Position numbers and translations under genes: made by a program. A stretch of DNA of 64,000 bases, from the NCBI RefSeq assembly GCF_032062105.1, contig NW_026930753.1, positions 248,001 to 312,000 of the forward strand, read 5' to 3'. The DNA comes from Saccostrea cucullata. Its lineage: Eukaryota. Under the pieces are notes generated by a model that made no database searches, was not told the DNA's origin, and saw only the letters and a program-made list of their open reading frames with translations. This document shows, in pieces, positions 25,901 through 46,182 of this stretch (position 1 is the stretch's first letter; every line of letters begins with the position of its first letter).

Positions 25901-28255
25901 TGTGTAGCGTTTTTGATCGTCTGGAATCTGCTGGCTTAAAATTGAAACCTAACAAGTGTACTTTATTTGCCAGTCAGGTAGAATTCTTGGGTCACATAGT
26001 GTCAACTGATGGCATAGCAACAAGCCCATCTAAGACAAAGGTAGTCCAAGACTGGCCTACACCTTGCAATGTGTCAGAAGTGAGATCATTTTTAGGTCTT
26101 TGCAGTTACTATAGAAAATTTGTTCAAAATTTTGCTGCTATTGCAAAGCCATTGCATGATTTAACAGCCAAAGACAAGAATTTCAAATGGACAGAGGAGT
26201 GTCAAGATGCATTTGAAAAACTTAAGGCAGCTCTCACTTCTGATCCAATATTGGCTCATCCTGATTTCAGCAAAGAATTCATTTTAGACACAGACGCAAG
26301 TGATAAGGCTATTGGAGCAATCTTATCTCAGATCATTGATGGTAAAGAAAGAGTGTGTGCTTATGCCAGTCGTTGCTTGTCAAAATCCGAGAGACGTTAC
26401 TGTGTAACGAGAAAAGAGCTACTGGCTGTGACATATTTTGTGAAATACTTTAAGCACTATTTGTATGGCAAAGAGTTCCTTGTTAGAACTGATCACAGTT
26501 CCTTACGCTGGCTTATGCAGTTTAAAAATCCCGAAGGACAATTTGCGCGCTGGATTGATGTGTTGTCCACATATAACTTTCGAATTCAGCATCGTCCAGG
26601 ACGATTGCATGCAAATGCAGATGCCATGAGTAGGCTACCTTGTAAACAATGTGGGTATGATGATAACTGGAGAGAAGAGTCTACTGACCCCATTGTTAGA
26701 CAAATAGGTACCACTGAGTCATTGCAGTCCTCACAGGAAGCTGATGCCGACCTTCAAAAGCTACGTTCATGGATAGAACTTGGTTCCATTCCAAGTAAGG
26801 TCTCTGTTTCAGGTGAAAGTTTTTACCTGAAGTCCCTGGTTTCTCAGTTGGACAGACTCTGCGTAAAAGATGACCTCATTTGTCGAAAATGGGAAGACAT
26901 GTCAACAAATCAGATATTTTATCAATATCTAGTACCAAGTTCTGAGCGTCGGAGTGTCCTTTAGCAATATCACGATGGGAAAACGGCAGGACACCTAGGT
27001 ATTAAGAAAACTTTGCACAAAATACGGCTAAGGTATTACTGGCCAGGACTACAACGTGATGTTCGCCAATACATTGCTGGTTGCGAACTCTGTGCAAAGA
27101 GAAAGAGTGACAATGTAACAAAGTGCGCACCTATGAAAATAGTACACGCGGGATATCCTATGGAAAGGATAGCTATGGACATTTTGGGCGAGCTTCCACT
27201 TACAAAAAATGGCAATAAATATATCTTAGTGGTTGCTGATTTTTTTACGAAATGGACGGAGAGTTTTGCCATGCCAAACATGGAATCCCGCACAGTTGCA
27301 AGAATCTTGGTAGAAGAGGTGATTTCTCGGTTTGGGGTACCGGCAGTCTTGCACTCCGATCAAGGAAGGCAATTCGAGAGCAAGTTGTTCATGGAAATGT
27401 GTTCTTTGTTGGGCATAACGAAAACACATACAACACCATACCATCCACAATCTGATGGTATGGTGGAACGATTCAATCGTACATTGACAACGATGCTTAG
27501 TAGTTTTGTAAATGAGAACCATAACGACTGGGACGAACACTTGCAATATGTCATGATGGCATATCGTTCTACTATACACGAAACCACTGGGTTTTCACCT
27601 AATGCGTTGATGCTGGGGAGGGAAGTCTGTACTCCCTTGGACATCTTATATGAAGTACCTTCATCAATAAAACCAATACCACAGAATACGTGGGTTTGGG
27701 AACTTCAAGATAGACTTGAGAATGCCCACAAAATTGTCCGTGTCAATACAAACCAAGAAATAGTACGCCAAAAGCATTACCACGACAAAAAGTTGAACTG
27801 AGGAAAGTTTAATAAAGACGATGAAGTCTATGTTTATTTTCCAAAAAGAAAATCGGGGCAGTCTCCTAAATTCACTAGCTATTGGCGTGGTCCTTACAAA
27901 GTAATCAAGAAAATGTCTGAGGTGACATATATGGTTGACTGTGGTCCATACGGTTCAAATCAAATAATCCATGTAGACAGAATGAGACTGAAATGCAGTC
28001 AAACTTTGGTAGGAGAAAAGTGAAAACATTGCTGAAAGCATTCCAAGGTCCGTCACTAATGAACAACTTCCAGATAATGAGACAAGAAAAGATGACAATG
28101 AAAGTATAAGTGAAGATTCTCAAATAAAGAACGGAAGTCAGGTGCAAACAACAGATGAAAGTCAAGTGTTAGACAAAGAGGCTGATTTGCCTACAAGACA
28201 ATTCAGAAGTAGACGACCACCTGTTTGGTTAAAGGATTATGAGACAGATTATTAG
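22974..28255 (+). pseudogene. gag-pol: Gag-Pol polyprotein of Gypsy A (single-ORF type, disrupted)
   Basis: ATG 22974 (MGSNIEND..STP, like the element B N-terminus), frameshift near 23068, then the 1298-aa ORF: gag core, CCHC knuckle CFYCGKPGHMKSKC, protease LVDSGA, RT YLDD, RNase H DTDAS. In-frame stops at 26962 and 27799; integrase HSDQG, YWRGPY module, C-terminal RRPPVWLKDY ending 28255. Confidence 0.92.
23140..23236 (+). repeat. 27-bp coding tandem repeat in gag (TDHSMTGQL)
   Basis: ACAGACCATAGTATGACAGGCCAGTTG about 3.5 times, with degenerate copies downstream. Confidence 0.85.
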
Positions 28256-28315
28256 TATTGAGTACAGTTATAGTATCTTGTATATAATGTTTGTTCATTT
28301 ATTTCAGATCCAATC

Positions 28316-29044
28316 ATGGTGAAGACAAAGTTGACAAAGCGTATCGATTCAAGAAAATGTCCCATGTGTTCTGTACTCTGTCATGGAGACGTAGACTTCA
28401 CCAATCATGTAGTGGAGTGTGCACAGCAGGAGCATGCCTGCACCTTTTGTGAATTTGCTTCACAGAAGGAATGCAACGTCAAACGCCACATGAAAAGAGC
28501 TCATAAGGGATTACTAGAAGATTCAATACCCTTGGGAGGGGTGGCTGATAAAATTGGTCAAAAAAGAGAAGAGGACAATTTGAATAGAGATGATGTAGAT
28601 AACACAGATGACCATGTTTCTGATTCAGGTGATGAGGATTGGATAAGTCAGGATCCAGGTGAATTACTGGAAGAGAGTCATGAGATGCCATCTACAGTAG
28701 TAGAAAATCCTCTTAAGAAAGGTGGTGAAGTTTTGGATGCGCCAAGAGAAAGTGACTTACTTGCAGGTCGGGTTTTCAGAAAGAAAACAAAGCCATCTCT
28801 GCCAGGAAAACGTGTCCACCCTCAAGATGACCATTCCCTTGTGACTTCACAAGCAGTGGATGAAACGGCAAAGATGTCCACAATGACTCAGACATCAGGT
28901 TGTTTCCTCGATGATAAACTTAAGGCAGATGTTGGTACACAGACGGATTTTGCGACAGAAATATCGAAGAAAACAATTTGGAAATTCAGACAGGGTGATA
29001 TCGACATAGAGGAAATTACAGAGGAAAAATTAATTTTGTATTGA
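28316..29044 (+). CDS. Accessory ORF3 of Gypsy A: zinc-finger protein, 242 aa
   Basis: Intact ORF between pol and the 3' LTR. C2HC finger CPMC-x12-H-x3-C and C2H2 finger CTFC-x12-H-x4-H, acidic middle region. Preceded by a splice acceptor (TTCATTTATTTCAG ending 28307). Confidence 0.8.
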   Translation: MVKTKLTKRIDSRKCPMCSVLCHGDVDFTNHVVECAQQEHACTFCEFASQKECNVKRHMKRAHKGLLEDSIPLGGVADKIGQKREEDNLNRDDVDNTDDHVSDSGDEDWISQDPGELLEESHEMPSTVVENPLKKGGEVLDAPRESDLLAGRVFRKKTKPSLPGKRVHPQDDHSLVTSQAVDETAKMSTMTQTSGCFLDDKLKADVGTQTDFATEISKKTIWKFRQGDIDIEEITEEKLILY

Positions 29045-29178: not shown

Positions 29179-29752
29179 TGAAATGTTATTTTTGTATTGA
29201 ATCAAACGTTTTTATGACCATATTTTCCTCGTAAAATGGAATGACCTGACACCCCTTACAAATAGAACACCCTATGTGTATATAAACCCGGGATGTAGTG
29301 AATCTGTGTCTTTCTTGTTAAAGTTATCCGAGAGTGTAGAAGCTGGATAGTAAGTATAAGGTTCAATAAAAGGCTTAAGTGTTTAGAAAGATAAGTAGGC
29401 AATTCATTCAGTGGCCCGAATAGAGTCAAAGCTGCTTTGGTAGTCTGCCTATCTTATTATTATCCTGAGTAGTCGTCCACTGTGACCGACCATAGCACTC
29501 ACATATTAAGTCAGGGAAAATAGCTAGTGCTGGGGATAGTGGCCGACCTGTCTCTGGTGCTAGTCTATTTAATTAGGAAACGTATAACACTTACTTATTG
29601 ACGGTCTTTCATTTATTTTTGATTCACTTCTTGATTTAACCCAAGGTAGGGACATTCAAATATATAATATATTCTAATCAGTGATTGAGAAAAAGTATTA
29701 CTTAGTTTGGCAAAGAGGTTCTTACGAAATCATTTAATTGATTGACGGCAAT
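29179..29752 (+). repeat. 3' LTR of Gypsy A (3'-truncated)
   Basis: Starts TGAAATGTTAT, aligns to 22310-22895 with scattered substitutions and one ~11-bp deletion. Confidence 0.9.
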
Positions 29753-30796
29753 GCAGATAAAAAAAACCAATCTTTTCAGGATTGTACTTTTGTATGTAAT
29801 TTATTAAAAATCCATCAATGACATGTTTATTGTCATCCAATCAGAATATCACTATCAAAATGAAACATTTTATCTCATTTGGTTCAACAGCAACCCGATA
29901 TATAGAGTATCTAGGTCAATAACACACTGTATGGTGTCTGACAAATCCCTTTAAAGTCTACTTTGCAGTTATAAATGTGTTAAACACATGGCCTTCTGTT
30001 TCGCTCTAAACATATATAGTACCATTTCACATACTCAGTTATACAAGTTGCCTAAACATTTTCAAGTGATATTATTGAATTTATTGTAGTTAATGTCATC
30101 CTAATTTAGGAATTGGTCCCTTTGACCTAAACAATTGGAATGTTAGTGTGGGTAATAGTATTTTGTAATAATTAAAATTTCTTTGCAGGAAACGCTCGTC
30201 AGGACACAAGACTGAAAAACAGACGTACTGAAACACTGCCGTAAACACAGCCATCATTAAAGTCAACGGATTACCTAGGAACATCAAAGCAATATGACTG
30301 GCAATTTTTATCAATCAATGTGGCAGAAAAACATAAAAAAAAATATTTAAATGTTCAACTTCTTTGTTCATTGCCTTTTTTTCTTGATATATGAATATCA
30401 ATATATGAATATCGCAAAATATTTATGCGAATTTCGCACGATTTTTACATGAAAAAATGATAAATTGGAATTTGCGTAAATATCATGCGAAATTTCAGTC
30501 ACATGAAAATCGCACGAATGTCGCATGAATATTGTATGGGGACGTTCGCATGAAATTCGTATATGGAACTTTTCGCATGGTTTTTATATGATTTCCCCAC
30601 GGAATCCATGCGAAAAGGCAATCGCATGAAAATCATGTGACTCACTTTTCCCTGTGTACTATTGATGTTATAATATAGCACTGATTTATTGAAGGTAGAA
30701 TATTTTGTATGCTTCCTAATTACCCCTGCGTACAAAAAATAACGCACACTATGTAATGAAGCTTTTACAAAAGTCATCTCGTCTTATCCTTATGTT

Positions 30797-32146
30797 CTTT
30801 AGAAGGAGATTTTGAAAGAATATTTCTATGTAGTATATGTCAAGTCAAACGTTGCAATATTCGATCTTTTCCATTTGTATTGTAAAATTTTCCATTTGTA
30901 TTGTATGATATTTTGTGTATTGTATAATTTTCCATTTGTATTATAAAATTTTTTATTTGTATTGTATAATTTTTATGCATTGTATACTCAGTAATTTGCC
31001 ATTCGCATTCTATAATTTTCCATTTGTATTGAATAATTTTTCATTTGCATTATATAATTTATTTGCTTTTTTGCATTGTATAATTTTTCATTGACATTTT
31101 ATATTTTTCAATTGCATTGTATAATTTTTCATTTATATTGTAAAAAAAATCATTTGTATTGTACAATTTTTTTAATTTGTATTCTATATTTTCCATTTGT
31201 ATTGTATAATTTTTCATTTGCATTGTATCCGAGGGATTGTTTATATCTTTAGAAGGAGATTTTGAAAGAATATTTCTATGTAGTATATGTCAAGTCAAAC
31301 GTTGCAATATTCGATCTTTTCCATTTGTATTGTAAAATTTTCCATTTGTATTGTATGATAATTTGTGTATTGTATAATTTTCCATTTGTATTATAAAATT
31401 TTTTATTTGTATTGTATAATTTTTATGCATTGTATACTCAGTAATTTGCCATTCGCATTCTATAATTTTCCATTTGTATTGTATAATTTTTCATTTGCAT
31501 TATATAATTTATTTGCTTTTTTGCATTGTATAATTTTTCATTGACATTTTATATTTTTCAATTGCATTGTATAATTTTTCATTTATATTGTAAAAAAAAT
31601 CATTTGTATTGTACAATTTTTTTAATTTGTATTCTATATTTTCCATTTGTATTGTATAATTTTTCATTTGCATTGTATCCGAGGGATTGTTTATATCTTT
31701 AGAAGGAGATTTTGAAAGAATATTTCTATGTAGTATATGTCAAGTCAAACGTTGCAATATTCGATCTTTTCCATTTGTATTGTAAAATTTTCCATTTGTA
31801 TTGTATGATATTTTGTGTATTGTATAATTTTCCATTTGTATTATAAAATTTTTTATTTGTATTGTATAATTTTTATGCATTGTATACTCAGTAATTTGCC
31901 ATTCGCATTCTATAATTTTCCATTTGTATTGTATAATTTTTCATTTGCATTATATAATTTATTTGCTTTTTTGCATTGTATAATTTTTCATTGACATTTT
32001 ATATTTTTCAATTGCATTGTATAATTTTTCATTTATATTGTAAAAAAAATCATTTGTATTGTACAATTTTTTTAATTTGTATTCTATATTTTCCATTTGT
32101 ATTGTATAATTTTTCATTTGCATTGTATCCGAGGGATTGTTTATAT
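30797..32146. repeat. Three near-identical 450-bp tandem units built from ~21-bp AT-rich subrepeats
   Basis: AGAAGGAGATTTTGAAAG at 30801, 31251 and 31701; internal TTGTATAATTTTTCATTTGCA-like monomers. Confidence 0.95.
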
Positions 32147-33897
32147 TGGTTTGTAACGAAAGGATTTTATTGGACAGGTTTAATCTAATCATATATCTGA
32201 TTTCGTAATACCCGAGATTTTCCAGGAAGTTTACATGTGTTATCCAGTCTGAGAATTCAGTACAAGGCTCATTTTTTCGGAGAAAAAAGTAAGTTGAAAT
32301 AATGACCTGTAGGGATTTTAAAACAAAGTAAAAGCATTTAGTTTTAACAAGATATGCTCATATCATCTCACAACAAACCTATTTCGTAGTTTCAACTTTT
32401 CTGACCCAACGGTTCTTGAAAAGATGTATAGAAGATGTCATCTAATTTTTACTAAACCACTTCCATACACAAAAAGCATCATCCTTCATTTTAAGAAATT
32501 TAAATCCAGTTTATCAATGTATACCGGTACTTCTTGGCAAGTTAGGGCTAGCAGAGTAGTACTTGATAAAATGCTGAATATGCCAAAAGTTTACAGACGG
32601 ATGATAGATATAATGTAATGAGAAAAGCTGACTTTTCTACCATACACTTTATTTTTCACAACTGCCTGTATTTACATGTATGTTTGTATCAATATCTCTC
32701 CATCGGCCTTAGTTAATATAATTCTTTAACAAAATATTTCGACGATAAAATGTGCAAATGTGTAAATGTACATTTTGTCGTCCATTCCGCAAGAGGACAA
32801 AAATGGCTCATCAAAGGGCCATATTGTCGGCAGTGACAATAGGTATATATGCACGAGAGGAAGAATATACATGTATATATACTGTACTTTTTCCTTACCT
32901 GATATTGGACTTTTCCAAATTCTGTATTCACCCATTCTATCAAACTTTTCTGAAAAAACAAAAAAAAAATAAAGTTAATGATGTCAATAAGTCTTGAATG
33001 TCTTTTATCAGAATCGAAAATATTCCGTACCATTTTTTTTATTCCTAAAAAGTTTAAGTCAAAGAGTATAAAAATTGGCCTGATATTAAAATAGGACAAT
33101 TTTGCATCTGGATATATCTACAGACTTTTTATTTTTTTCAAACAAACTTTTTTTTCAATATCTCTTACACATTTTCTGTAAGAGGTATTCAAAATAGCAT
33201 ACGTATATGGATGAATTTCGTACGATTTACGGAACGTCATACTGACGATTTGCTGGCGGGGGGGGGGCTGTTAAATGTTTAAAGCACTTCATATTATGAT
33301 AAAACACTTTATATAAATATAACGGGTGTTGTACAAAATATAATGACATACATATATCTACAATATATAATGAAAGATGATCTGACAGGTGTATAATGGA
33401 AGTTGCTCAATATATACTTTAAAAACTACTTCATATAATTAAAATAGTACAACATATAATGAAGAAAACTCTGCATATAATGTTTATTCCTCATATAATA
33501 CAGCCCCGGTCTTCCATACACATTCTCCAATTATGAAGTTGTCCATACACGTTAACAAATTGTGACAAAAAGGGGGGTATAAGACCTCTAAAGAGGTTTC
33601 GCGTGATATTTTACGCATGGACTTGTGAAAAATTTTTTTTCTCAAAGTTATCATACTCATGTTTTAGCCAAATGTTATCACGATCATCAAAGTTTTCAAA
33701 GGAAATAAAAAAATAGATTTATTTTAAATAATCTATATAGTGCGTCTATTGATTTTTATCTAGGGATAAAAAATTTATTTTTCCCTGGCATTATTCTGCT
33801 TTTCAAAATATTCAACCATTTTCGACACTTGTGTATTTTCGAACAATACCTATACTTCTTTGAACGAATATTTCCGAGAGCAGCATTAGCAAACTTC

Positions 33898-34384
33898 TGA
33901 AGCAAAAACTGTAATCGAGATCATATTATCCTTTCATTTCTCGGTAGTCGCACTGACTTCCGGTTTCTTGTTTCCTTTAGGTTCTCTGCAGGTCATGTGA
34001 CCTGTTGTAGGTATAAATAAGGAGACAATCGGTTGTTTTAGTTAGTCTGTTGCTGACAGCCGAATTGGAAAGACGGTTGTATACAGAGAAGTCAAACGTG
34101 GTAGGTACTGCAAGGAATACCTTGAATCAAGTCTTATGTGTCTGAAATAGACTTTCGAGACTTTGATTGATTATATATTATTTAGATAAAGTACCTGATA
34201 TTCTGGTTTGACTGAAGGTAAGAAACAGACGCGCTTCAGTCCTTGGAAGGCGCGTGCGCTCCCGAGAAACGGAGGAATAATTGTACATACTATTAATTTA
34301 AATTTGTGATTGAGAAAATTGATTTATTCTTTAATTGTTCAGATAGAACAGCCGAATCCCATAAAAGAACCCGAAAACGTTACA
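33898..34384 (+). repeat. 5' LTR of Gypsy B
   Basis: TGAAGC...CGTTACA, direct repeat of 45696-46182, TATAAATA at 34013. Confidence 0.95.
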
Positions 34385-34390
34385 TAATTT

Positions 34391-34413
34391 TGGTGGCAGC
34401 GCGGTGGGATTCG
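34391..34413 (+). promoter_or_regulatory. Primer binding site (tRNA-Leu) of Gypsy B
   Basis: TGGTGGCAGCGCGGTGGGATTCG matches the tRNA-Leu 3' complement with a 2-nt insertion; same TAATTT spacer as element A. Confidence 0.85.
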
Positions 34414-34483
34414 GCAGATAATCAAAGTAAATAATATAAGTTTTAAATTAAAAAATTTTTGTGTTATATTTGCCTTGTAAATC

Positions 34484-35759
34484 ATGAGTGCGATGGAGGA
34501 AATGATCAACGAAGAGATATCCTTTCTTGAAAAGAGTTGTGAGGGATTGCGTCTTGAAATAGAACAGCAATCTACACCCGTTGAAACAACTCGACCAATG
34601 CGCGATTCTGGAATTGCATCATTGACTGGTGAACGCGCACAAGAAAATCAGCCTGGAAGAGCGCTAGATGGGGTGACAATAAGGAGAAAAACAGCTCAAC
34701 GAAATTTCACTGCAGAACCAAATGCACCCAGTTCGACAAGGGATTATGCTGCGAGTGCTCAACAATATGAAACGATGGTGCCACAGCCAAACTGGAAAAC
34801 GCCGAACATTTTGTCAAGTGCACATCCACACCCAGTTCATATGTTGAGTGAGACTCTGGCGCATTCTCCTTTTCAAGTTCAATTGGAAATGACATCGCAA
34901 GGAGAGTATCAAAAAAGGCCTCCTGTGCAAACGAAAGATGCAGAATTATTTCATGAGGGTCAGGTACAAAACAAGTTTGAGACTCTAAGATCTTCATTAA
35001 ATGCGCAGTTTTCAGAAACTGCTTTAGAACATAATGCACAGCTACCGATTCAAATGAAGTGTACATCCGCGAATGCGCTGCAGCATATATCAGCAGATGC
35101 GCTGCATCAAACACCTGTGGATGCGCTTCATCAGATACCCGCGAATGCGCAGAGTCGATATGGAAATTCCGGAAATGAGGTAAACTAAGGGATAGATAGC
35201 TCATTTCCCCGACAGATAGTCAACGTTGCTGATAAAGAGAACAAGGACCAAAGTGAGAAAGCTACAGCCAAGTGTAACATTAAGCCAGCAACCTTTGATG
35301 GAACTCATTCTTGGCTGGATTATAAATCCCATTTTGATGCGTGTACGGCTATTAATAATTGGAATTCTAAGGAAAAGGGGTTGTATTTAGCAGTGTCACT
35401 GCGAGGAGCTGCACAAGGAATATTAGGAAATGTTTCGCCAGAAACGGGACAACAATATGACCATTTAGTGAAAGCGCTTGAAGAAAGATTTGCTCCACCT
35501 AATCAAACGGGGTTGTACCGTGCACAACTCAAAGAAAGGCGTCAACGGGCATCAGAAACATTATCTGAGCTAGGCCAAGCTGTGTGCCGATTGACGTATT
35601 TGGCATATCCATCTGCACCGGCAGAAGTAAGAGAAACTCTTGGTAAAGAGGCTTTTATTGATGGATTGATAGATTCTGATATGAGACTACGCATTAAACA
35701 GAGTCGACCTCAGAATCTAAATGAAGCTATTCGCCTGGCAATAGAACTTGACGCCTACT
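34484..35759 (+). pseudogene. gag: Gypsy B gag, 5' part
   Basis: ATG 34484, in-frame stop at 35186, then IKPATFDG..YLAVSLRG..ERFAPPNQT..RLRIKQSRP..AIELDAY, homologous to element A gag. Cut by the LINE insertion. Confidence 0.9.
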
Positions 35760-36045
35760 CGGATGAGTCACGTGACACGGAACAGGGTGGACGCTTTATC
35801 TGTTCTTGTGTTTTTTTTTTGACATTTTTTGCCAAAATCTCTATTTCTACACACTTAAAATCTGTTGGAAGTGGCGTAGGATAGTTTTTGGCCTGTGTAT
35901 ATATGTTCATTGGATTTGGATTGGATATTATATTCGTTTTTTGTGAATTTTTTGTGTGTGTGAATTATCTGATACCTTGGTGAACACTCTTCACCCCTTG
36001 ATCGCTTGTATTACTTGTATTGCACAGCGAGGTTTAAACTCCGTC

Positions 36046-37386
36046 ATGGGTGATCGGACAGAGGAACGTACGATCAAACCGCTATATTTAAAAGACTCAG
36101 AAATTCAATGCTCGGATGATGGCAGAATAACAGACTTCGACTTAATGGACTGTATCACGAAAGTGGTTGGAAATTCCTTGCATTGTCTACAACTTGACCG
36201 GAATTTGTGGAGAGTTTACCTCAGTGATAATGCCAGTAGAGAAAAACTTCTAACAGAGGGAATACATATTCAAAACATTTCTATTTCTTTCTTTGACACA
36301 AATCCTTACTCGTCAGGTAACCATAGTACCACAGAGAAAACTTTGAAAATCAGATTATGTGGCCTTCCCCTATCTGTAGACGATTCAGCTGTTCATGAAT
36401 TACTGGAAAAACTTGAAGTCAAGCCTAAAAGTAATATTCTATACGAGAAAATTCGCCACCCGGTTACAAATAGGATGACTAGTGTACTAAACGGGAATCG
36501 GTTTATTTACATTGAGCCTTTACCCGAAGAAAAGTATCTTCCCAGGATCAACTACTGTGCGGGCCTGCGCTGTCAGATTTTCCATTACGGTCAGCCTAAA
36601 TCCCAGAGGAAACTCACATGTACTAAATGCTGGGCGACAGATCATACCAGGAGGTACTGTAATAACGCCCCACGTTGTAAAGTGTGTAAACAGGAAGGGC
36701 ACCAGCCAGGGGATGAAAAGTGCGCGTATTATCAAGTCCAAGAAAACGTTATTGCCTTTAACGGAGAAGACAACGTGCTTTCTAATTTTTTCCCTTGTGA
36801 ATTAAATATTTATGGAATAACGCATAAATCTGCGGAACACGCCTTCCAATACACAAAGGCCGTTAGATGTGGCGATCTCGAGTCAGCCAAACTGGTTCAG
36901 GAGGCCAGAGATGCCCTATCAGCCAAACGGTATGGCGACAAGGTCAAACCCAACGAGCAATGGTTTGAGACCAGGGAAACAGCCATGACCGAAATAATCG
37001 AAAATAAATGTGTACAAGTCCCAATGTTTCGGGAAAAATTAAGATCGGTTAAGAAGGACATTATATTCGCCGAATCAACCTACAATGACATATGGGGCAC
37101 TGGTTTGGATAAAAAAGGTACGGAGAACACCAAAATTGATTCCTGGCCTGGAAAAAACCTTCTTGGCAAAATTATCAGTAAAATCGGCAAAAAAATACGG
37201 AAACGAAAAAAAAGTGACCAGTGGAGCAAACCAAAACAGAAACAAAAACCGAAAGTTAACACCAAACAGCGAGACATTGCACAGATGTTACATGCTTTAA
37301 GGAATCAATCGGATTCTGAATCCATGTCAGGTTTTGATGAATCATCGGACTCTGATTCAGACGACCCGGCTAAGAAGGACAAATAA
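36046..37386 (+). CDS. LINE ORF1p: Tx1-like RNA-binding region, two zinc knuckles, NADAR (YbiA/DUF1768-like) domain, basic/acidic tail; 446 aa
   Basis: First ATG at 36046, uninterrupted frame. Knuckles CTKCWATDHTRRYC and CKVCKQEGHQPGDEKC. NADAR motifs in order: LSNF, SAEHAFQYTK, AKRYG, W..M..K..Q, AESTYNDIWGTG, GKNLLG (~36748-37200). Confidence 0.9.
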   Translation: MGDRTEERTIKPLYLKDSEIQCSDDGRITDFDLMDCITKVVGNSLHCLQLDRNLWRVYLSDNASREKLLTEGIHIQNISISFFDTNPYSSGNHSTTEKTLKIRLCGLPLSVDDSAVHELLEKLEVKPKSNILYEKIRHPVTNRMTSVLNGNRFIYIEPLPEEKYLPRINYCAGLRCQIFHYGQPKSQRKLTCTKCWATDHTRRYCNNAPRCKVCKQEGHQPGDEKCAYYQVQENVIAFNGEDNVLSNFFPCELNIYGITHKSAEHAFQYTKAVRCGDLESAKLVQEARDALSAKRYGDKVKPNEQWFETRETAMTEIIENKCVQVPMFREKLRSVKKDIIFAESTYNDIWGTGLDKKGTENTKIDSWPGKNLLGKIISKIGKKIRKRKKSDQWSKPKQKQKPKVNTKQRDIAQMLHALRNQSDSESMSGFDESSDSDSDDPAKKDK

Positions 37387-37504
37387 ATCAAAAACTGTGT
37401 AATGCTCGAACGTCGCAGGACTTTGATTCTCGATCAGCGGACTGGAATGAAAAGTTACGGTATTTTTTTCTATAACAAATATATGCATTTGAATATTAAT
37501 TCTT

Positions 37505-40500
37505 ATGGAAAAATTAGAATTTATCTCAGTTAATGTAAGGGGTTTAAATACCCCCGAAAAAAGACGAAAAATTTTTACATGGTTGAAAGAATGTAATATA
37601 GATATCATTCTGTTGCAAGAAACACATTTTTTAGAAAAAAATGAATCTGTATATAATTTAAACTGGAGAGGAAAAACATTTCACGCATATAGCGACTCTG
37701 CATTCAGTAGAGGCGTGTCTGTTCTGTTTAACGCAAAAATAGATGTTAACATAATAAATGTCAAAAAGTCTATTGATGGTAGGAAAATTCTGATAAATCT
37801 TGAAATCGAGGGTAATATTCTTACAATAGTAAATATATATGCACCTAATGAAATTAAAAAGAGGTGTGAATTTTTCAAAAAAACTTAAGAACTTTATTTC
37901 AAAAAATTGTGTCAACGAAAATATTATACTATGTGGAGACTTTAATTGCCAGATAAACAATATTAATAATGTAGATAAAAGTGCAAATTATTTAAAAGAT
38001 TTGATAAGGCATTATAACATGGATGATATATGGAAAAAACAAAATCCAGGTATGTCAGGTTTCACTTGGTGTGATGCAAAAAATGATCCTAAAAGTCGAA
38101 TAGATTATGTTTTTATAAATGATTCTTTTTATTATAGCATAGCAGATATCAAGGTTAGAAAAATTCCAGGCACTCATTCAAACGGGAGTCGAATGAGTGA
38201 CCATAGATACTTAAAATTTAGTTTTGATATCGATAAAACGAAAAAAGGTCCCGGATATTGGAAACTTAACGTTTCCTATCTCGACAATGAAAAATATAAA
38301 AAAGGTATCTTAGACATTATTCATAGTATAAATTCCTCTTTAAGCCCTATTTTGACATGGGAGTTAATTAAACGAAAGGTTAAAGATTTCTCGATTTATT
38401 TTGCAAAAAATGAACAAAAATCAATTAAACAAAAGATAAGAACACTAGAACGCGAAATAGAAGATATGGAGAAAGGAAACGTAGAAAATTTTAATTACAA
38501 AAGACTGAAAACTTTAGAAGCGGAACTTGACGCTATTTATGACAAAAAATCTAAAGGTGCGCAGATAAGGTCTAAAATTAAATGGATAGAGGAGGGGGAG
38601 AAAAATTCAAAATTCTTTTTAAATTTAGAAAAACGCAATCAATCATCAAACGTAATTAAAGAAATAAAAACAAGAGAAGGAAATAAAATCAGTAAAACTA
38701 ATGCCATTTTAGGTGAAATGTATTCTTTTTATAGCGAACTATATACTAGTAAAGAAATTTAAAACGAAAAAATAGAAAAATATTTATCTGAGATAGACGA
38801 TATCCCTAAATTAAGTGAAGAAGATAAGATATTGTTAGAAAAATTTCCAACATATGAAGAGTGCAAGGAAGCTGTTGATAGCATGAAAAAAGAAAAATCA
38901 CCTGGACTAGATGGCCTTCCTAGTGAATTTTATCAATGTTTTTGGGAAACACTTGGGCCTTTCTTTTATAAAGCACTTAATGATATTTTTGATAAAGGTG
39001 AATTGTCTTACACACAGAAACTTTCTATTATATCACTGATCCACAAAAAGGGTGAAAAAGATAATTTAAAAAACTATAGACCGATAAGCTTAACAAATAC
39101 AGATTATAAAATTATTGCCTTTGTCTTTGCAAAGAGATTACAAAATATACTATATAAGTTGATTAACGAAAATCAAACGGCTTACATAAAAGGGAGATAT
39201 ATCGGTGAAAATGCTAGATTAGTACTTGACGTTTTTGAATACTGTGAAAGTGAAAATTCAGATGGTATATTACTTTTCTTAGACTTTGAAAAAGCATTTG
39301 ACTCGGTTGAATGGAACTTTCTTTTCCAAGTCTTACAAAAATTTAATATTGGCAATAGTTTTATAAAGTGGGCAAAAATTTTATATACAAATCCAATGTT
39401 TAAAATGAAAAACAACGGCTGGCTTTCTAAAACAAGCGAAATGACGCGAGGAATTAGGCAAGGCTGTCCTATTTCCGCTCTCTTGTACCTATTCGTCGCA
39501 GAAATTTTGGCTATTAAAATAAAATGTGATACTGATATAAAAGGCATTACAATTAATAATTATGAAATCAAAAACATCCAACATGCAGACGATTTGACTG
39601 TAGCTTTAAAAGACGAAATATCAATGAAGCGAACTCTGGATAAATTACAAGAATTCTGTGAACATGCGGGTTCAAAAGTAAACATGCATAAGACAGAATG
39701 CATTTTATTAGGGGAACTAAGAAATTTATATGATGAACTCTACGGTATAAAAATTAAGAATAAAGCAGTAAGATGTTTGGGAATATTCATAGGGCATGAT
39801 AAGGAAGAATGTTACAATAAAAACTGGATGAAAATTTATCACGATATTGAAAAACTTTTTGAATCTTGGAAAAGAAGAAAACTAACGCTATTTGGTAAAT
39901 CATGTATAGTTAAGACACTTGCTATATCTAAACTTACATACGTTGCCTCAATACTAAGTCTTCCTGATAATGCTTACATTAAAAAAATACAACGTCTAAT
40001 TTATAACTTCATTTGGGATAAAAATGAACGAATTAAAAGAAACACGCTTATAGGTAGAATTTTAAAAGGTGGACTCTCAATCGTTGATATTGAATGTAAA
40101 TTAAAAGCCTTAAAAGCAGCTTGGGTACCTAGATTGTTAAAAAGCAAAGGTATTTTGTACAAAATTTTTGATGGTTATTGTAAAAAATCAAATTTTGAAG
40201 TTCTCTATGTGTTAGATTTTTCTGATAGAAAAGTAGAAAATATGGAAAAATTAGAGAAACTACCTAAATTTTATCAACAAATGTTATGTTGCTTTAATGA
40301 ATGTAAGCCCTGTTTTTTGAACAAAATGTCTTCCGATAATGTTCTTCGACAGCCGATATGGAACAATTGTAACTTTGTTTATAGGGGAAATACATTATTT
40401 TTTAAAAACTGGATAGCCAGTGGGATTTTGCATGTTAAAGACTTATTTGACGATGATGGTAATTTTAAATCATTGTTAGATTTTTCTAATTGTTGTGTGA

Positions 40501-41210
40501 ATTTAAAATTCTTTCTTCTGTTTTCAAACCTTTGCTACTAAAGTATGATTTTTCAAATTGTAAGTTTGTTAACATAAGATACAAAAATTATTTTCTTTTC
40601 TACACAGGACAGGTTAATATCATAGATCAAAGATGTAACTTTTTTTATGACAATCTTGTACACAGAAAATTTTGTAAACCATGTTATCAAATAGTTTTAA
40701 GCAACGAATTCAGTCGAACCTTCAGAATGGAAAAATATATATCAATGTAAATTATATGACATACCCGATAAACAACTTACAGAATTCAACTATAAACTTT
40801 TAAACAATATTCTTTGTAATAACTTGTATCTCAGTAAATGGAAAAAAGAAACGAGTAGTAATTGCAAATTATGCCACGTGAATGAAACTTCAAAACATCT
40901 CATTTTTGAATGTAAAAATGTTGGTGAAATTTGGAATAGATTAAGTTTGTACCTGAAAATAGATATCAAATGGAAACATGTAATAATTGGATTTAGCTCT
41001 GAGCGCAATAGAAAAATTGTATCACTCAACACACTCATCTCATATGTTGCCTGTAGGATTTACAAATATAAGATGTACTGTCGAATACATTCCTTAGATG
41101 AAACTAGTTATAACATCTTTAATCACGTTAAATCTTCAATTTTTTTCTATGCTTCCATTCTAAAAAATTTGAAATCACTTGACTACAAACTTTTTAAAAA
41201 TTTTGCATAA
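37505..41210 (+). pseudogene. LINE ORF2p: APE endonuclease, reverse transcriptase, C-terminal zinc finger (disrupted)
   Basis: APE motifs NVRGL, LQETH, NIYAPN, GDFN, SRIDY, SDH, GPGYWKLN; RT motifs SPGLDG, NYRPISL, LDFEKAFD, GIRQGCP, QHADD; CKLC..HLIFEC. Frameshift in the A run near 37880, stop at 38760, frameshifts near 40490 and 40730. Confidence 0.93.
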
Positions 41211-41341
41211 AATTGTCTGAAGGTAATATTGTCATATTGTTTGTAATGTAATTTGTCTGTTATATATATATTTCACTGTTTGTTTGTATGAAGAATTTAA
41301 AATAAATAAATTAAAAAAAAAAAAAAAACTTGACGCCTACT

Positions 41342-44300
41342 ATAAGACCGAGAAAAGAAGTCATATGCGCGAAACTGAAAGTCAGGGACAAGCACGAGCT
41401 CAAGCTTCCGAGTCTGGAGATTTAAAAGCGCTGATGCAGAAAATGCAGAATAAAATAGATAATCTGGAGAGGCAGATTAAGGCAAATGCAAGATTCAGCA
41501 GAGATTCTTTTCAGAAGGAAGGCAAGCGGAACAGGGTAAAATGTTACTACTGCTCAGAGGAAGGACACATTCGGAAGAATTGCCCAAAGTTGAAGAACAA
41601 AGCTCAAGACAAAGAAAAGGATATGCGGCGACATGAATCAAAGTCAGATGGCGGAAGCGCATTTCAAGTGCGCAGTAGACGTAAAAGAAAGAGAAAATGT
41701 AAAAGCAATGGCAATGTTGGCGCAAACAATTTGTGCGAGGAAGCAGGTATCTTCATTCAGGGAAATGTGAATGGGAGCAGTGCAAAACTCTTGATTGACA
41801 CTGGAGCATCCCTTACTTTTATTTCATAGAGATTGTTTGATACATTGCAGGAGGAAAAACCTGTGCACAAGGAGAACGCACAACGAATATTCAATGCTAG
41901 TGGTTCTGTTCTGTCCCAGTATGGTAAAGCAACATTTTCTCTCAAGATTGGTGAGTCAGATAGATTTATTGATGCAGTTGTTGCAGATATTTCTGTGGAC
42001 GGAATTATTGGACTTGATTTTCTCAAGAAATACAATGGGCTGAAAGATCTTCAAGAGAGTTTGCTGCGATTGAATTATGAGACATGCCCATTTTCCTGGG
42101 AAGGCACACTAGGTTGTTACAGAGTCACTGCAGCCAGTGATATTTGCATACCACCGAGGAGTGAAATAATTATTTCTGCCAATGTTACGGGAAATAATAA
42201 CTATGGAGGAGCGGATTACTTAGTGGAACCAGAACGAAAATTTATTGAGAAAGGGCGTGCGCTAGTAGGACGCACTCTCGTTAAAGGTAGCGATAAGATA
42301 CCAGTTTGCTAAATGAATGTCACTAATGATATGCAACAGATTTTTCGAGGAACTCTGATTGGGAAAATGACAGCTGTTGAGGAGAGACCAAAATCCCCAT
42401 TTTATCCTCAGGGTTTAACCAAAGAGCTAAGAGGTGATCTGAAAGATTTGTTAGACAGATGTAAAGGAAATCTATTTTCAGAGCAAGTGACAAAAGTTGA
42501 GAACTTCCTACGAAAAAATCAGTTTTTGTTCGCAACTTCTAATTATGACTTAGACCAGTGTGGTGCGCCACAAGATAAACATGGAGCAGGCTAAACAACC
42601 TATCAAGCAAGGTCCTAGGCGAATTCCGATTCATCTAACTTATGAGGTAGATGCACAGGTTAAGGAAATGCTCGAGAAGGATGTAATAGAACCTTCAACC
42701 TGGGCATCGCCAGTAGTTCTTGTACGCAAGAAAGACGGCACAATGCGCTTTTGTGTAGACTACCGTCGATTAAATGAGGTGACCACAAAGGACGCTTATC
42801 CTCTTCCAAAAATTGATGAGGCTTTTGACCACTTATCAGGACACAAGATGTTTTCTACGCTTGATCTGAACAGTAGTTACTGGCAGGTTAGTATGGAGGA
42901 GAGCGACAAGCCGAAGACTGCATTTGTGACACGACAAGGTTTATTCCAATTCAAGGTTATGCCCTTTGGCTTATGCTGAGCGTCTGCAACGTTTGAGAGA
43001 CTTATGGAAACCGTTCTTGCAGGACTCCAATGGGATAAGTGTTTAGTATACCTTGATGACATTATTGGTGTAGGCAAATCATTTGATGATATGCTTGAAA
43101 ACCTGCAACATGTTTTTCAGAGATTGCATCAGGCTGGCTTAAAGTTAAAGGCCAAGAAATGCAATTTTTTTGCTAGCAAGGTATCCTATCTGGGACACAT
43201 CATTTCCAAAGACAGAATTGCAACCGACCCAGAGAAAGTGAAAGCAGTAGCTGAGTGGCCAATTCCAAATACTGTGACAGAGTTAAGATCTTTCCTAGGT
43301 CTTTGTAGTTATTACCGGCGCTTTATAAAGAATTTTGCATCAGTTGCCAAACCATTGCATCGACTCACAGAAAAGGGAAGGAAGTTTCTGTGGGGTAAAA
43401 AAGCCCAAGAAGCATTCGAAGTGCTGCGCAACAAACTGATAACTGCGCCAGTATAAGCTCTACCAGATGTAACGAAGCCATTCATTCTGGATACCGACGC
43501 TAGCAACGAAGCGATCGGTGCGGTATTATCTCAAAATATTGATGGTAAAGAACGTGTTATAGCATATGCTAGCCGTACATTGTCCAAGTCAGAGAGGAAA
43601 TATTGTGTGACCCGGAAAGAACTTTTGGCCATTGTCCATTTTATTAAGCATTACCGCCACTACCTTTATGGTAAACAGTTTCTTATTAGAACGGACCATG
43701 GGTCTTTGAGATGGCTTTTAAGATTCAAAAACCCAGAGGGTCAGTTGGCAAGGTGGTTGGAAGTGATCAGTACCTATGATATGAAAATAGAACACAGACC
43801 CGGTAAAAAGCATGGTTATGCGGACGCGCTGAGCAGAATAACTTGCGCTCAGTGTGGGTTTGATGCTTCATCATTGGAAAATGCTGAGTATGATATGAAA
43901 GTTGAACCAGCTGTACGAACTTTACAGTCATCGGATATAAAAAGTGAAGAGATGGATTATAGTCTGCAAGAGGCTCAGGAGCAGTGTAGAGACATTAAGC
44001 TTGTAAAAACATGGGTCGAGAAAGGTAAGCGACCAAGTTTCAGCGATATGTCTATGCATGGCTACGTAGTGAAGTCTTTGTGGAATCAGTTTTCTAGACT
44101 TGCAATAGAGAATGGATTGCTCATGCGCAAGTGGACTCTGCTTCGTCCCAACAAAGAAGTTCATCAAGCTATCATACCAGACCAAGAGCGCAGACGCGTC
44201 TTGGAAATGTGTCATGATAACCAGACGTCAGGACACTTGGGGGTGAACAAAACGATAGCTTAGATACGACAGAGATATTACTGGCCTGGATTTCAAAAAG

Positions 44301-45441
44301 ACGTCTACCAGTATGTTACAGGTTGTGACAAGTGTACGAGACGTAAAAATCCAAACCCTAAACATAGGGCCCCAATGCAGATTACCGGATCAGGTATGCC
44401 AATGGAAAGAATTGCCACAGATATACTGTGTGAGCTACCTTAGACTGATAGAGGAAATCGCCACATTTTAGTTGTGTAAGACTATTTCACCAAGTGGACA
44501 GAGGCATTCGCTCTGCCAAATATGGAAGCTGAGACGATTGGACGCACTATGGTAGAACAGGTATTTGTCAGATTTGGTATCCCCTTTACCATTCATTCGG
44601 ACCAAGGTCAACAATATTAGAGCAAGCTCTTTCAAGAGATGTGTCGGTTACTTGGGATTAAAAAGACCCGTACAACACCCTATCACCCGAAGTCAGACCG
44701 ACGGTGGAGCGCTTTAACCGCACATTGTTCTCTATGTTAAGCACTTACGTTCAGGAAAATCAACGTGACTGGGATTTGCATCTTCCGTATATACTTATGG
44801 CATATCGTTCTACAGAACATACCACCACTAATTTCTCGCCAAACATGCTTATGTTGGGACGAGAAGCAACTACCCCATTAGAGTTGATGTATGAAATGCC
44901 TCCAGGTATTAAGGATATTCCAACAAGTCAATGGGTTTTGGTGTTGCGTGAACGATTAGAGTCAGCTCATAAGTTGGTCAGAGAAAACATTCAAGGTGAA
45001 ATGCAGCGCCAGAAAAGGTACCATGATACCAAACTAGCATGGTCATCCTTTAGTCCCGGAGAAAGAGTTTATGTATTTTTCTATACCAGAAAGAGCGGCT
45101 GTTCTCCGAAGTTAATATCATTTTGGAGAGGGCCTTTCTTAATTGAAGACAAATTGTCAAATGTTTTATATGAGGTTGCATGCGGAACAAAATGCAAAAG
45201 CACTATCATCCACTGTGATCGCTTGCGGAAGTGTAAGTCACAGATACTTCAAAGAGAGAATGATATCAGTAATTTCTCGAGTCAAAACAATGCAGATGAT
45301 ACTCAAGAGTGTCTTGTAGAAGAAAATGAAGATCAGTATGATGTTAGGGAAAACCCAAGCAGTTGTGCTTCAGATAGGCTAAGGCGCATTAGAAATGCAC
45401 CTGCGTGGCATGACGACTTCATTGTTGAATACAAATTATAA
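41342..45441 (+). pseudogene. pol: Gypsy B gag 3' part and pol (disrupted)
   Basis: CCHC CYYCSEEGHIRKNC, protease LIDTGA, RT WASPVVLVRKKDG..YLDD, RNase H, integrase HSDQG/ERFNRT, FWRGPF module. Many stops and frameshifts (e.g. 41827, 42310, 42977, 43454, 44261). Confidence 0.93.
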
Positions 45442-45695
45442 GCTCTCAGGACAACTATAGATTAGTGTAGACCATGAGGAAGAACTCTGGTTTTAGTGGT
45501 TAAAACTGTAGCTATGGCACAATAACATTGTAAATTTAAGCAGAGAGCTTAGTATCTTTCAAATCTTTATGGGATATGCACATAGTCAGGAAGACTATTG
45601 CATGGTATAAATAATAATGAACATATGTAAAATTGTACGCCTTTAGTTTTTCTTTATTTAGGAATGCGAGACGCATTTCCTGGAGGCGTGAGAAG

Positions 45696-46182
45696 TGAAG
45701 CAAAAACTGTAATCGAGATCATATTATCCTTTCATTTCTCGGTAGTCGCACTGACTTCCGATTTCTTGTTTCCTTTAGGTTCATTGCAGGTCATGTGACC
45801 TGTTGTAGGTATAAATACGGAGACAATCGGTTGTTTTAGTTAGTCTGTTGTTGACAGCCGAATTGGAAAGACGGTTGTATACAGAGAAGTCAAACGTGGT
45901 AGGTACTGCAAGGAATACCTTGAATCAAGTCCTATGTGTCTGAAATAGACTTTCGAGACTTTGATTGATTATATATTATTTAGATAAAGTACCTGATATT
46001 CTGGTTTGACTGAAGGTAAGAAGCGGACGCGCTTCAGTCCTTGGAAGGCGCGTGCGCTCCAGAGAAACGAAGGAATAATTGTACATACTATTAATTTAAA
46101 TTTGTGATTGAGAAAATTGATTTATTCTTTAATTGTTCAGATAGAACAGCCGAATCCCATAAAAGAACCCGAAAACGTTACA
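45696..46182 (+). repeat. 3' LTR of Gypsy B
   Basis: Direct repeat of 33898-34384, preceded by purine-rich GGAGGCGTGAGAAG. Confidence 0.95.

Follow-up and report, generated by a model that had tools for sequence, protein, structure and literature searches.

A Ty3/Gypsy accessory gene family of bivalves with a histone H3-like N-terminus and frequent absence from sister elements

Introduction

Both viruses and hosts have documented histone-mimicking proteins, and the capture of chromatin readers and writers by transposons is also known. For H3 N-terminal mimicry proteins (H3TMs), the rule is M-Z-R-X-K, with Pro at position 1 tolerated in VRK1; R2 belongs to the three requirements for a PHD-type H3 mimic (PMC8166343). 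Influenza NS1 possesses a four-residue H3-like motif at its C-terminus, and the available part of that account of viral histone mimics names no retrotransposon case (PMC6028506). CERV, an extra gene of the Ty3/Gypsy element Cer1 of C. elegans, has a spliced mRNA and is nuclear (PMC10309623). In plant DNA transposons, VANC and TnpA are lineage-specific accessory factors of the anti-silencing kind, with cognate copies as their proposed targets (10.64898/2026.08.24.746577, PMC13547354). ASCIZ/ATMIN combines N-terminal zinc fingers with a disordered tail that carries TQT sites (PMC5963919). The available text of 10.1101/2021.11.30.470311 describes the capture of chromatin readers by transposons and does not mention "mimic"; that of PMC6238403, on mollusc Gypsy clades (Mag C-clade, MolGy and others), mentions neither "zinc" nor "third ORF". 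In the literature searched, we found no transposon-encoded histone mimic, no animal retrotransposon with an accessory anti-silencing factor and no description of the ORF reported here, which Repbase, subscription journals or supplements may note.

In this study, we analysed ORF3 of a Ty3/Gypsy element from the oyster Saccostrea cucullata. Like the H3TMs, ORF3 possesses a motif at the extreme N-terminus, a removable Met and K4, and it is likely a chromatin protein; unlike them, it has K or N in place of R2, keeps T3, T6 and often R8-K9, and is encoded by a transposon (PMC8166343). Like NS1, it is a small accessory protein that is largely disordered, belongs to a selfish element and carries a short H3-like motif, but the motif of ORF3 is N-terminal, in register and joined to zinc fingers (PMC6028506). 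As an extra Ty3/Gypsy gene it resembles CERV, for which the available text does not describe the finger and motif architecture (PMC10309623). ORF3 occupies the same position in the element as errantivirus env (PMC13524379), but has no hydrophobic segment. A merely proposed action on cognate copies is the point of likeness to VANC and TnpA; in contrast to them, ORF3 belongs to an animal retrotransposon, has unrelated domains, and its predicted finger-2 recognition is not family-specific (10.64898/2026.08.24.746577, PMC13547354). The arrangement of fingers and TQT-bearing tail is like that of ASCIZ/ATMIN, but ORF3 has one conserved site, an H3-like start and no homology beyond generic fingers (PMC5963919).

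Results

The window is a stretch of 64,000 nucleotides (assembly GCF_032062105.1, contig NW_026930753.1, positions 248,001 to 312,000, forward strand). As shown in Table 1, it contains a Ty3/Gypsy element, recognised by an LTR pair (94.9% identity in the alignment of 22313-22895 with 29182-29752), a primer-binding site and the domain order protease-RT-RNase H-integrase. We take the primer-binding site to be of the tRNA-Leu type. In gag-pol, in-frame stops are located at 26962 and 27799, and frameshifts near 23070 and 28020. The first-pass annotation of this DNA had described an intact 242-aa frame with pol upstream and the 3' LTR downstream, and this was confirmed. However, its start at 28308 was misplaced, because this is the base just after the acceptor-like CAG. 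It had also pointed to the contrast between an unbroken ORF3 and a damaged gag-pol. This is true but uninformative, because chance could readily produce it (probability about 0.6, a hand estimate for a 0.73-kb ORF escaping 4 lesions spread over about 5.3 kb). In the nearest ORF3-bearing sister, L002/L155 (80% DNA identity), ORF3 has stops and a frameshift. The ORF3 motifs, in turn, occur well beyond chance expectation.

Table 1. Features of the Ty3/Gypsy element and its ORF3 in the window
Feature	Position	Strand	Remark
5' LTR	22313..22909	+	first few bases not alignable; terminal ...TTACA
Primer-binding site	22916..22929	+	also present in most of the clade's families
gag-pol (CCHC knuckle, protease, RT, RNase H, integrase)	22974..28255	+	two stops and two frameshifts
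Splice-acceptor-like site (pyrimidine tract and CAG)	28290..28307	+	8 nt upstream of ORF3 ATG
ORF3, 242 aa (P0001)	28316..29044	+	ATG 28316, stop ends 29044
H3(1-9)-like motif	28319..28345	+	H3 register once Met is removed
Finger 1 (C2HC, acidic helix) and finger 2 (C2H2)	28358..28504	+	
Acidic W-x(2-4)-D-P motif	28640..28660	+	30/36 relatives vs 0.3 expected by shuffle
R-x-x-T-x-P in basic patch	28778..28795	+	32/36 relatives vs 3.6 expected
First TQT, not conserved	28886..28894	+	
Conserved LC8-type site	28928..28948	+	D at -4, TQT, D at +2
C-terminal beta hairpin, predicted	28955..29038	+	residues 214-241
3' LTR	29179..29752	+	final ~14 bases absent; purine-rich tract immediately before

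Several further features of this DNA were observed. In gag, six tandem 27-nt units at 23138-23319 encode a repeated 9-residue peptide. The C-terminus of pol (28190-28255) closes integrase with an R-x-R-x-x-P-x-W/Y-L-x-D-Y tail, which is conserved in all families, ORF3-bearing and ORF3-less alike. Three 450-nt tandem copies made of T-rich 21-nt subunits lie at 30796-32149. A second Gypsy element of the same clade (L041 family), whose LTRs are 97.9% identical, extends from about 33898 to 46182. A LINE is inserted in it at about 35900-41200; the first ORF of this LINE has a NADAR domain (E 1.7e-22), and endonuclease and RT follow.

We searched for relatives of ORF3. In the species' own genome (1.17 Gb), 100 of the 150 candidates scored matched the ORF3 protein. 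Among 50 fetched loci, 46 had both ORF3 and an integrase match, with ORF3 downstream. The exceptions included L002 and L044, without an integrase match, and L025, without a scored ORF3 frame; in L037 an insertion separates integrase and ORF3. Full-length database relatives are named from Saccostrea, Crassostrea/Magallana, Ostrea, Mytilus, Argopecten, Mizuhopecten and Ylistrum; genomic context was read in the S. cucullata genome, and some genome copies are identical to database proteins named Saccostrea. For one relative labelled as coming from a bacterial symbiont bin, we infer host DNA. Among the best 150 of 171 profile matches at E <= 1e-30, most were long multi-finger proteins that matched mainly the finger region, and 31 were new relatives that matched much of the profile in one or two stretches. 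Pfam gave a single sub-threshold C2H2 match to ORF3 and nothing else. Foldseek gave no match at E <= 0.001 and only generic C2H2 fingers, the ESM Atlas matches were unnamed or generic C2H2 clusters, and a metagenome scan found no ORF3 relative. The homologue search, which the first-pass annotation had recommended, showed that the H3-like start, the fingers and the LC8-type site are kept across families that are about 25-35% identical. ORF3 is a conserved accessory gene under purifying selection, with an overall dN/dS of 0.35.

Some relatives are unusual. The P0101 cluster contains eight near-identical sequences, seven of them named from one scallop species, which suggests a recent expansion in that species. 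In L044, P0076, P0192 and P0193, protease, Gag or the integrase tail is joined in frame to ORF3, and P0192 and P0193 retain the H3-like motif at the join. Such fusions are likely internal deletions or gene-model joins; the protease-ORF3 fusions P0076 and L044 are likely internal deletions. A Gag-ORF3 splice fusion, considered for long members of the P0160 cluster, was rejected because those members are Gag alone. The N-terminal extensions of database models are mostly translated acceptor tract or unrelated exons. In L119 (G000:C9972), antisense ORFs lie downstream of integrase, and we presume that they resemble Polinton/Maverick capsid-region genes.

To compare N-termini, 36 representatives with less than 55% identity were drawn from 84 full-length sequences. 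In 35 of them one Met lies 10-24 residues before the first Cys; the choice of this Met did not depend on the motif. At residue 1 they have V (14), P (10), A (8), T (2) or N (1), and residue 2 is N (17), K (16), P (1) or F (1). Arg at position 2 was found in 0 of these 35 relatives and in 0 of 65 in a second set. The H3-type residue is present at T3 in 31, K4 in 33, T6 in 33, R8 in 18 and K9 in 22 of the 35, and Q5 and A7 of H3 are not kept. Pro at position 7 (17/35) creates T-P-x-K/R in about half of the relatives, which is presumably a CDK-type site and could account for some of the H3 likeness. P0157 and P0162 lack the H3 register. By the sequence rule for a removable initiator Met (Z = A, G, S, C, T, P or V), 34 of 35 relatives qualify, versus 68 of 113 control N-termini. 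When elements were found through integrase and compared with a profile without the N-terminus, x-[KN]-T-K-x-T was present in 19/19 Met-bearing copies; four further matches were partial or had no Met.

The mean score of the relatives against residues 1-9 of the genome's own H3 was 17.8, with the best offset at 1, and against H4 it was -10.8, the comparison covering these two histones. The 113 controls scored -4.0 on average against H3, with a maximum of 16, which 22 of the 35 relatives exceed; seven controls reached at least 9. Another set gave a mean H3 score of 20.25 at offset 1 and 6.75 at the second-best of 32 offsets, on which we rely less because the start Met of its 37 genome copies was picked by a pattern favouring T3/K4. 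A search of the PDB with the N-terminal profile, a weak search with 13 columns, gave no match at E up to 10.

In seven distant pairs, pN was 0.107 in codons 1-9, 0.184 in the fingers and 0.385 elsewhere. In codons 1-9 of these pairs pS was 0.81. Because synonymous sites are saturated there and yet pN is low, the N-terminal motif is under selection at the protein level. In twelve close pairs, dN/dS was 0.12 in codons 1-9 (from small counts, 7 synonymous and 3 non-synonymous), 0.16 in the fingers and 0.42 elsewhere. In both sets of pairs, some partners have frameshifted tails, which raise the values elsewhere. Purifying selection on motif and fingers, for which a dN/dS check had been proposed, was thus observed. 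All four Thr codons are used at T3 and at T6. The spacing from Met to motif is fixed, and that from motif to first Cys varies from 11 to 19. The match to H3 at T3, K4, T6 and R8 that had been noticed in this one copy is in register in the relatives as well (R8 in 18/35), but R2 of H3 is never kept. ORF3 departs from the published H3-mimic rule M-Z-R-X-K at position 2, which is K or N and never R. Readers that tolerate the loss of R2 exist, such as ADD-type domains and survivin. Because the relatives share descent, the H3 likeness counts as one evolutionary observation, chosen after the fact.

Both zinc fingers and the acidic region were present as annotated, and the fingers are conserved in relatives. 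The C2HC finger is formed by C15, C18, H31 and C35, and the C2H2 finger by C42, C45, H58 and H63. Of 34 relatives, 31 have K/R at -1 of finger 2, 32 have N/Y at 3 and 33 have R/K at 6. These recognition residues are of the DNA type, resemble CTCF-type fingers and are alike across families, not family-specific. The predicted DNA binding rests on this one finger, because finger 1 is acidic and the inter-finger linker has a non-canonical length. Finger 1 was also considered as a UBZ-type ubiquitin binder and rejected, since the Asp essential to such binders is not conserved. An AlphaFold2 model was confident for the two-finger unit at residues 11-60 (block pLDDT 90-93), gave pLDDT 73-86 for the hairpin at 214-241 and had low confidence between them. 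The peak 19-residue hydropathy is 0.65 in ORF3 and 1.03 over 36 relatives. Thus, there is no TM segment, in agreement with the earlier view that ORF3 is not Env.

The W-x(2-4)-D-P and R-x-x-T-x-P sequences are two motifs newly recognised here. The former stands after an acidic run. A likeness to the p53 second activation domain was considered for it and gained no support from a PDB search with its profile, which gave no match at E up to 10. The latter corresponds to what had been read as a basic patch, RKKTKP..GKR. The patch is present and is better read as this conserved motif, in which R155 and P160 are invariant. It presumably resembles a 14-3-3 site and an NLS. The available text of PMC12017986 shows no 14-3-3 consensus.

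Two LC8-type TQT motifs had been proposed. Both coordinates were exact (the second at 28937-28945), but only the second motif is conserved, the terminal site being found in 32/36 relatives. In the first, the Met at -2 disfavours LC8 binding (PMC6607443). TQT beyond residue 110 occurs in 20/36 relatives versus 1.9 expected, [TVIS]QT in 32/36 versus 5.6, and two or more QT in 14/36. The terminal site lies 33-46 residues from the C-terminus, directly before the hairpin. Its flanks (polar at -4 in 32/32, D/E at +2 in 26/32) match the features of binders, and many TQT peptides do not bind LC8 (PMC6607443). By sequence, ORF3 has what is expected of an LC8 client: a TQT-type anchor, favourable flanks and a disordered region. 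A predicted complex with the genome's own LC8 scored 0.52 versus 0.11 for the best control and lends weak support; the runs share at least 61% of contacts, with partner pLDDT of at least 38. In the benchmark of such complexes, 51 of 78 solved pairs passed the mark, as did 2 of 108 mismatched pairs; passes at 0.60 or below, the range in which the score of 0.52 falls, came from 5 of the 78 and from each of the 4 passing mismatches. The score may be driven by likeness to solved LC8-peptide complexes.

Upstream of ORF3, a YAG lies 0-13 nt before the ATG in 44/44 distinct upstream sequences, with no other ATG between them. An acceptor-like site with at least 10 pyrimidines out of 15 is present in 43/44 copies, as compared with 175 of 3350 random 3' positions (5%). 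Because this site is conserved and no ATG intervenes, a spliced mRNA translated from the ATG at 28316 is suggested. No splice donor was conserved in the leaders of 16 elements with an LTR pair, from 21 examined. Neither of two sets of RNA contigs contained a joint at the acceptor, across which a 248-nt contig runs unspliced; these data, contigs from two runs with small word shares (0.07 and 0.05), are uninformative on expression. Since no donor is conserved and no junction appears in either set, we infer splicing solely from the acceptor side.

ORF3 lies downstream of integrase at 65 of 139 related loci, the best integrase matches in this genome (23/90 and 6/13 scored, and 36 by hand-matched coordinates), and is absent from the other 74. 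Each of the 13 families compared, the window's own and 12 others, has at least one sister without ORF3. For example, the closest sister, L152 (94%), lacks window positions 28301-29029. Mapped deletions are 637-869 nt long, are usually common to the copies of a family and mostly remove the acceptor as well. Their junctions show short direct-repeat overlaps in seven families, and the rest have unrelated filler or no clean junction; the loss in L121 and L125 could not be mapped. The second Gypsy element in the window has no ORF3 and shares a 731-nt deletion with L147-L149. LTR and 3' region identity between ORF3-bearing and ORF3-less forms is 78-98%.

In the integrase tree (102 sequences), ORF3-less copies stand beside ORF3-bearing ones on short branches, and two clades of 7 and 10 sequences showed no ORF3-bearing sister, a further test covering one of them. 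Open frames of at least 1600 aa are kept in 23 of the 74 ORF3-less copies. Because ORF3-less copies are as common as ORF3-bearing ones, include copies with open frames and make up two clades that showed no ORF3-bearing sister, the element can spread without ORF3. At support of at least 95, the integrase tree contains 4 of 5 ORF3 splits, and the ORF3 tree agrees with 5 of 8 splits of the integrase tree; shallow nodes agree, and deeper nodes are unresolved or conflicting. ORF3 and integrase distances correlate weakly (rho 0.18; 212/5000 permutations), and at least two placements, those of L087 and L132, conflict between the trees. Therefore, some module exchange is likely.

Absence of the ORF from sister copies had been named as something that would refute the proposed role. 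This applies in part, as the absence is real, even in the closest sister. However, the ORF3-less copies descend from an ancestor that had ORF3 and lost it by deletion, a pattern that speaks for a trans-acting factor rather than against function. The deletion lineages, and the many ORF3-less copies with open gag-pol, show that ORF3 is dispensable in cis. The simplest reading is that an ancestral ORF3 was lost many times, unneeded in cis and selected in the long term.

Discussion

From sequence comparison, it is well supported that ORF3 represents an undescribed accessory gene family with a selected H3-like N-terminus and repeated loss. That ORF3 is a trans-acting nuclear chromatin regulator benefiting its own Ty3/Gypsy clade has, in our judgement, a little less than an even chance. 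The steps of such a mechanism differ in certainty. Given the acceptor-like site, ORF3 would very probably have a spliced mRNA of its own that begins at the ATG. By the aminopeptidase rule, Met would very probably be cleaved, placing residue 1 in the H3 register. It is slightly favoured that a histone-tail reader or enzyme, dependent on T3, K4 and T6 though not on R2, would then recognise the motif as an H3 tail. LC8 bound beside the C-terminal hairpin would probably make a dimer, in which the single canonical finger gains avidity, and finger 2 would bind DNA. Action in trans is suggested by the deletion lineages. The least certain step is the net outcome, which may be activation or anti-silencing of the LTRs of the clade and not restraint. 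The fullest version, a true H3 mimic whose altered residue 2 selects readers or enzymes independent of R2, LC8-dimerised and steered by its finger as a trans-acting shared good that would maintain LTR activity in the clade and on which ORF3-less cheaters, arising repeatedly through deletion, ride, is offered tentatively, at less than even confidence.

The register of the motif bears on whether H3 is imitated at all. A functional ORF3 could instead carry at its N-terminus a kinase site, import signal, degron or ligand of some other N-terminus-binding domain, the H3 likeness being a coincidence in a K/T-rich peptide. The constant lack of R2, the loss of Q5 and A7, the frequent T-P-x-K/R and the seven controls that score at least 9 agree with this. 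However, T6 is retained with or without P7, T3 and K4 are equally conserved, and the motif keeps its distance from Met while its distance to the first Cys changes. We consider such a coincidence unlikely.

The same architecture could serve self-restraint. A zinc-finger repressor with an N-terminal motif can recruit a co-repressor, following SNAG-like logic, and ORF3 may do so at its own LTR or RNA; deleters would then spread faster in the short term while ORF3-bearing lineages persist. In line with this, the larger of the recent expansions in several families consist of copies without ORF3, yet almost every deeper branch of the integrase tree holds copies that have it. LC8 dimerisation is also used by host silencing complexes (PMC7919418, PMC7861614). 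Nevertheless, a diffusible repressor would also hit the ORF3-less copies, whose LTR and 3' regions are so similar to those of ORF3-bearing forms, and we regard self-restraint as rather improbable.

Another role would be that of a Rev/CERV-like RNA-binding factor for export or splicing of genomic RNA, with the motif as a tether to transcription sites. CERV of Cer1 is phospho-regulated, besides being nuclear and spliced (PMC10309623), and ORF3 has a conserved likely phospho-motif. Joint deletion of acceptor and ORF3 would end the need for such a factor. However, finger 2 resembles the DNA-binding fingers of CTCF-type proteins, and an export role alone does not explain the H3 register, so we judge this role distinctly improbable. 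Finally, a recently captured, neutral host gene fragment, which the first-pass annotation had itself raised and which REST-like, hunchback-like or HIVEP3-like database names might suggest, is barely credible, because a single finger is the basis of those names, the matches to host multi-finger proteins lie mainly in the finger region, relatives occur in oysters, a mussel and scallops, the overall dN/dS indicates constraint, and most supported ORF3 splits recur in the integrase tree.

If the fullest version is correct, ORF3 would combine histone mimicry by a transposon with an anti-silencing accessory role in an animal retrotransposon. Oyster database entries named REST-like or hunchback-like include this retrotransposon gene. 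The ORF3 family offers a testable 9-residue peptide together with a series of natural substitutions at R2, and within one genome at least 13 families provide natural pairs with and without ORF3.
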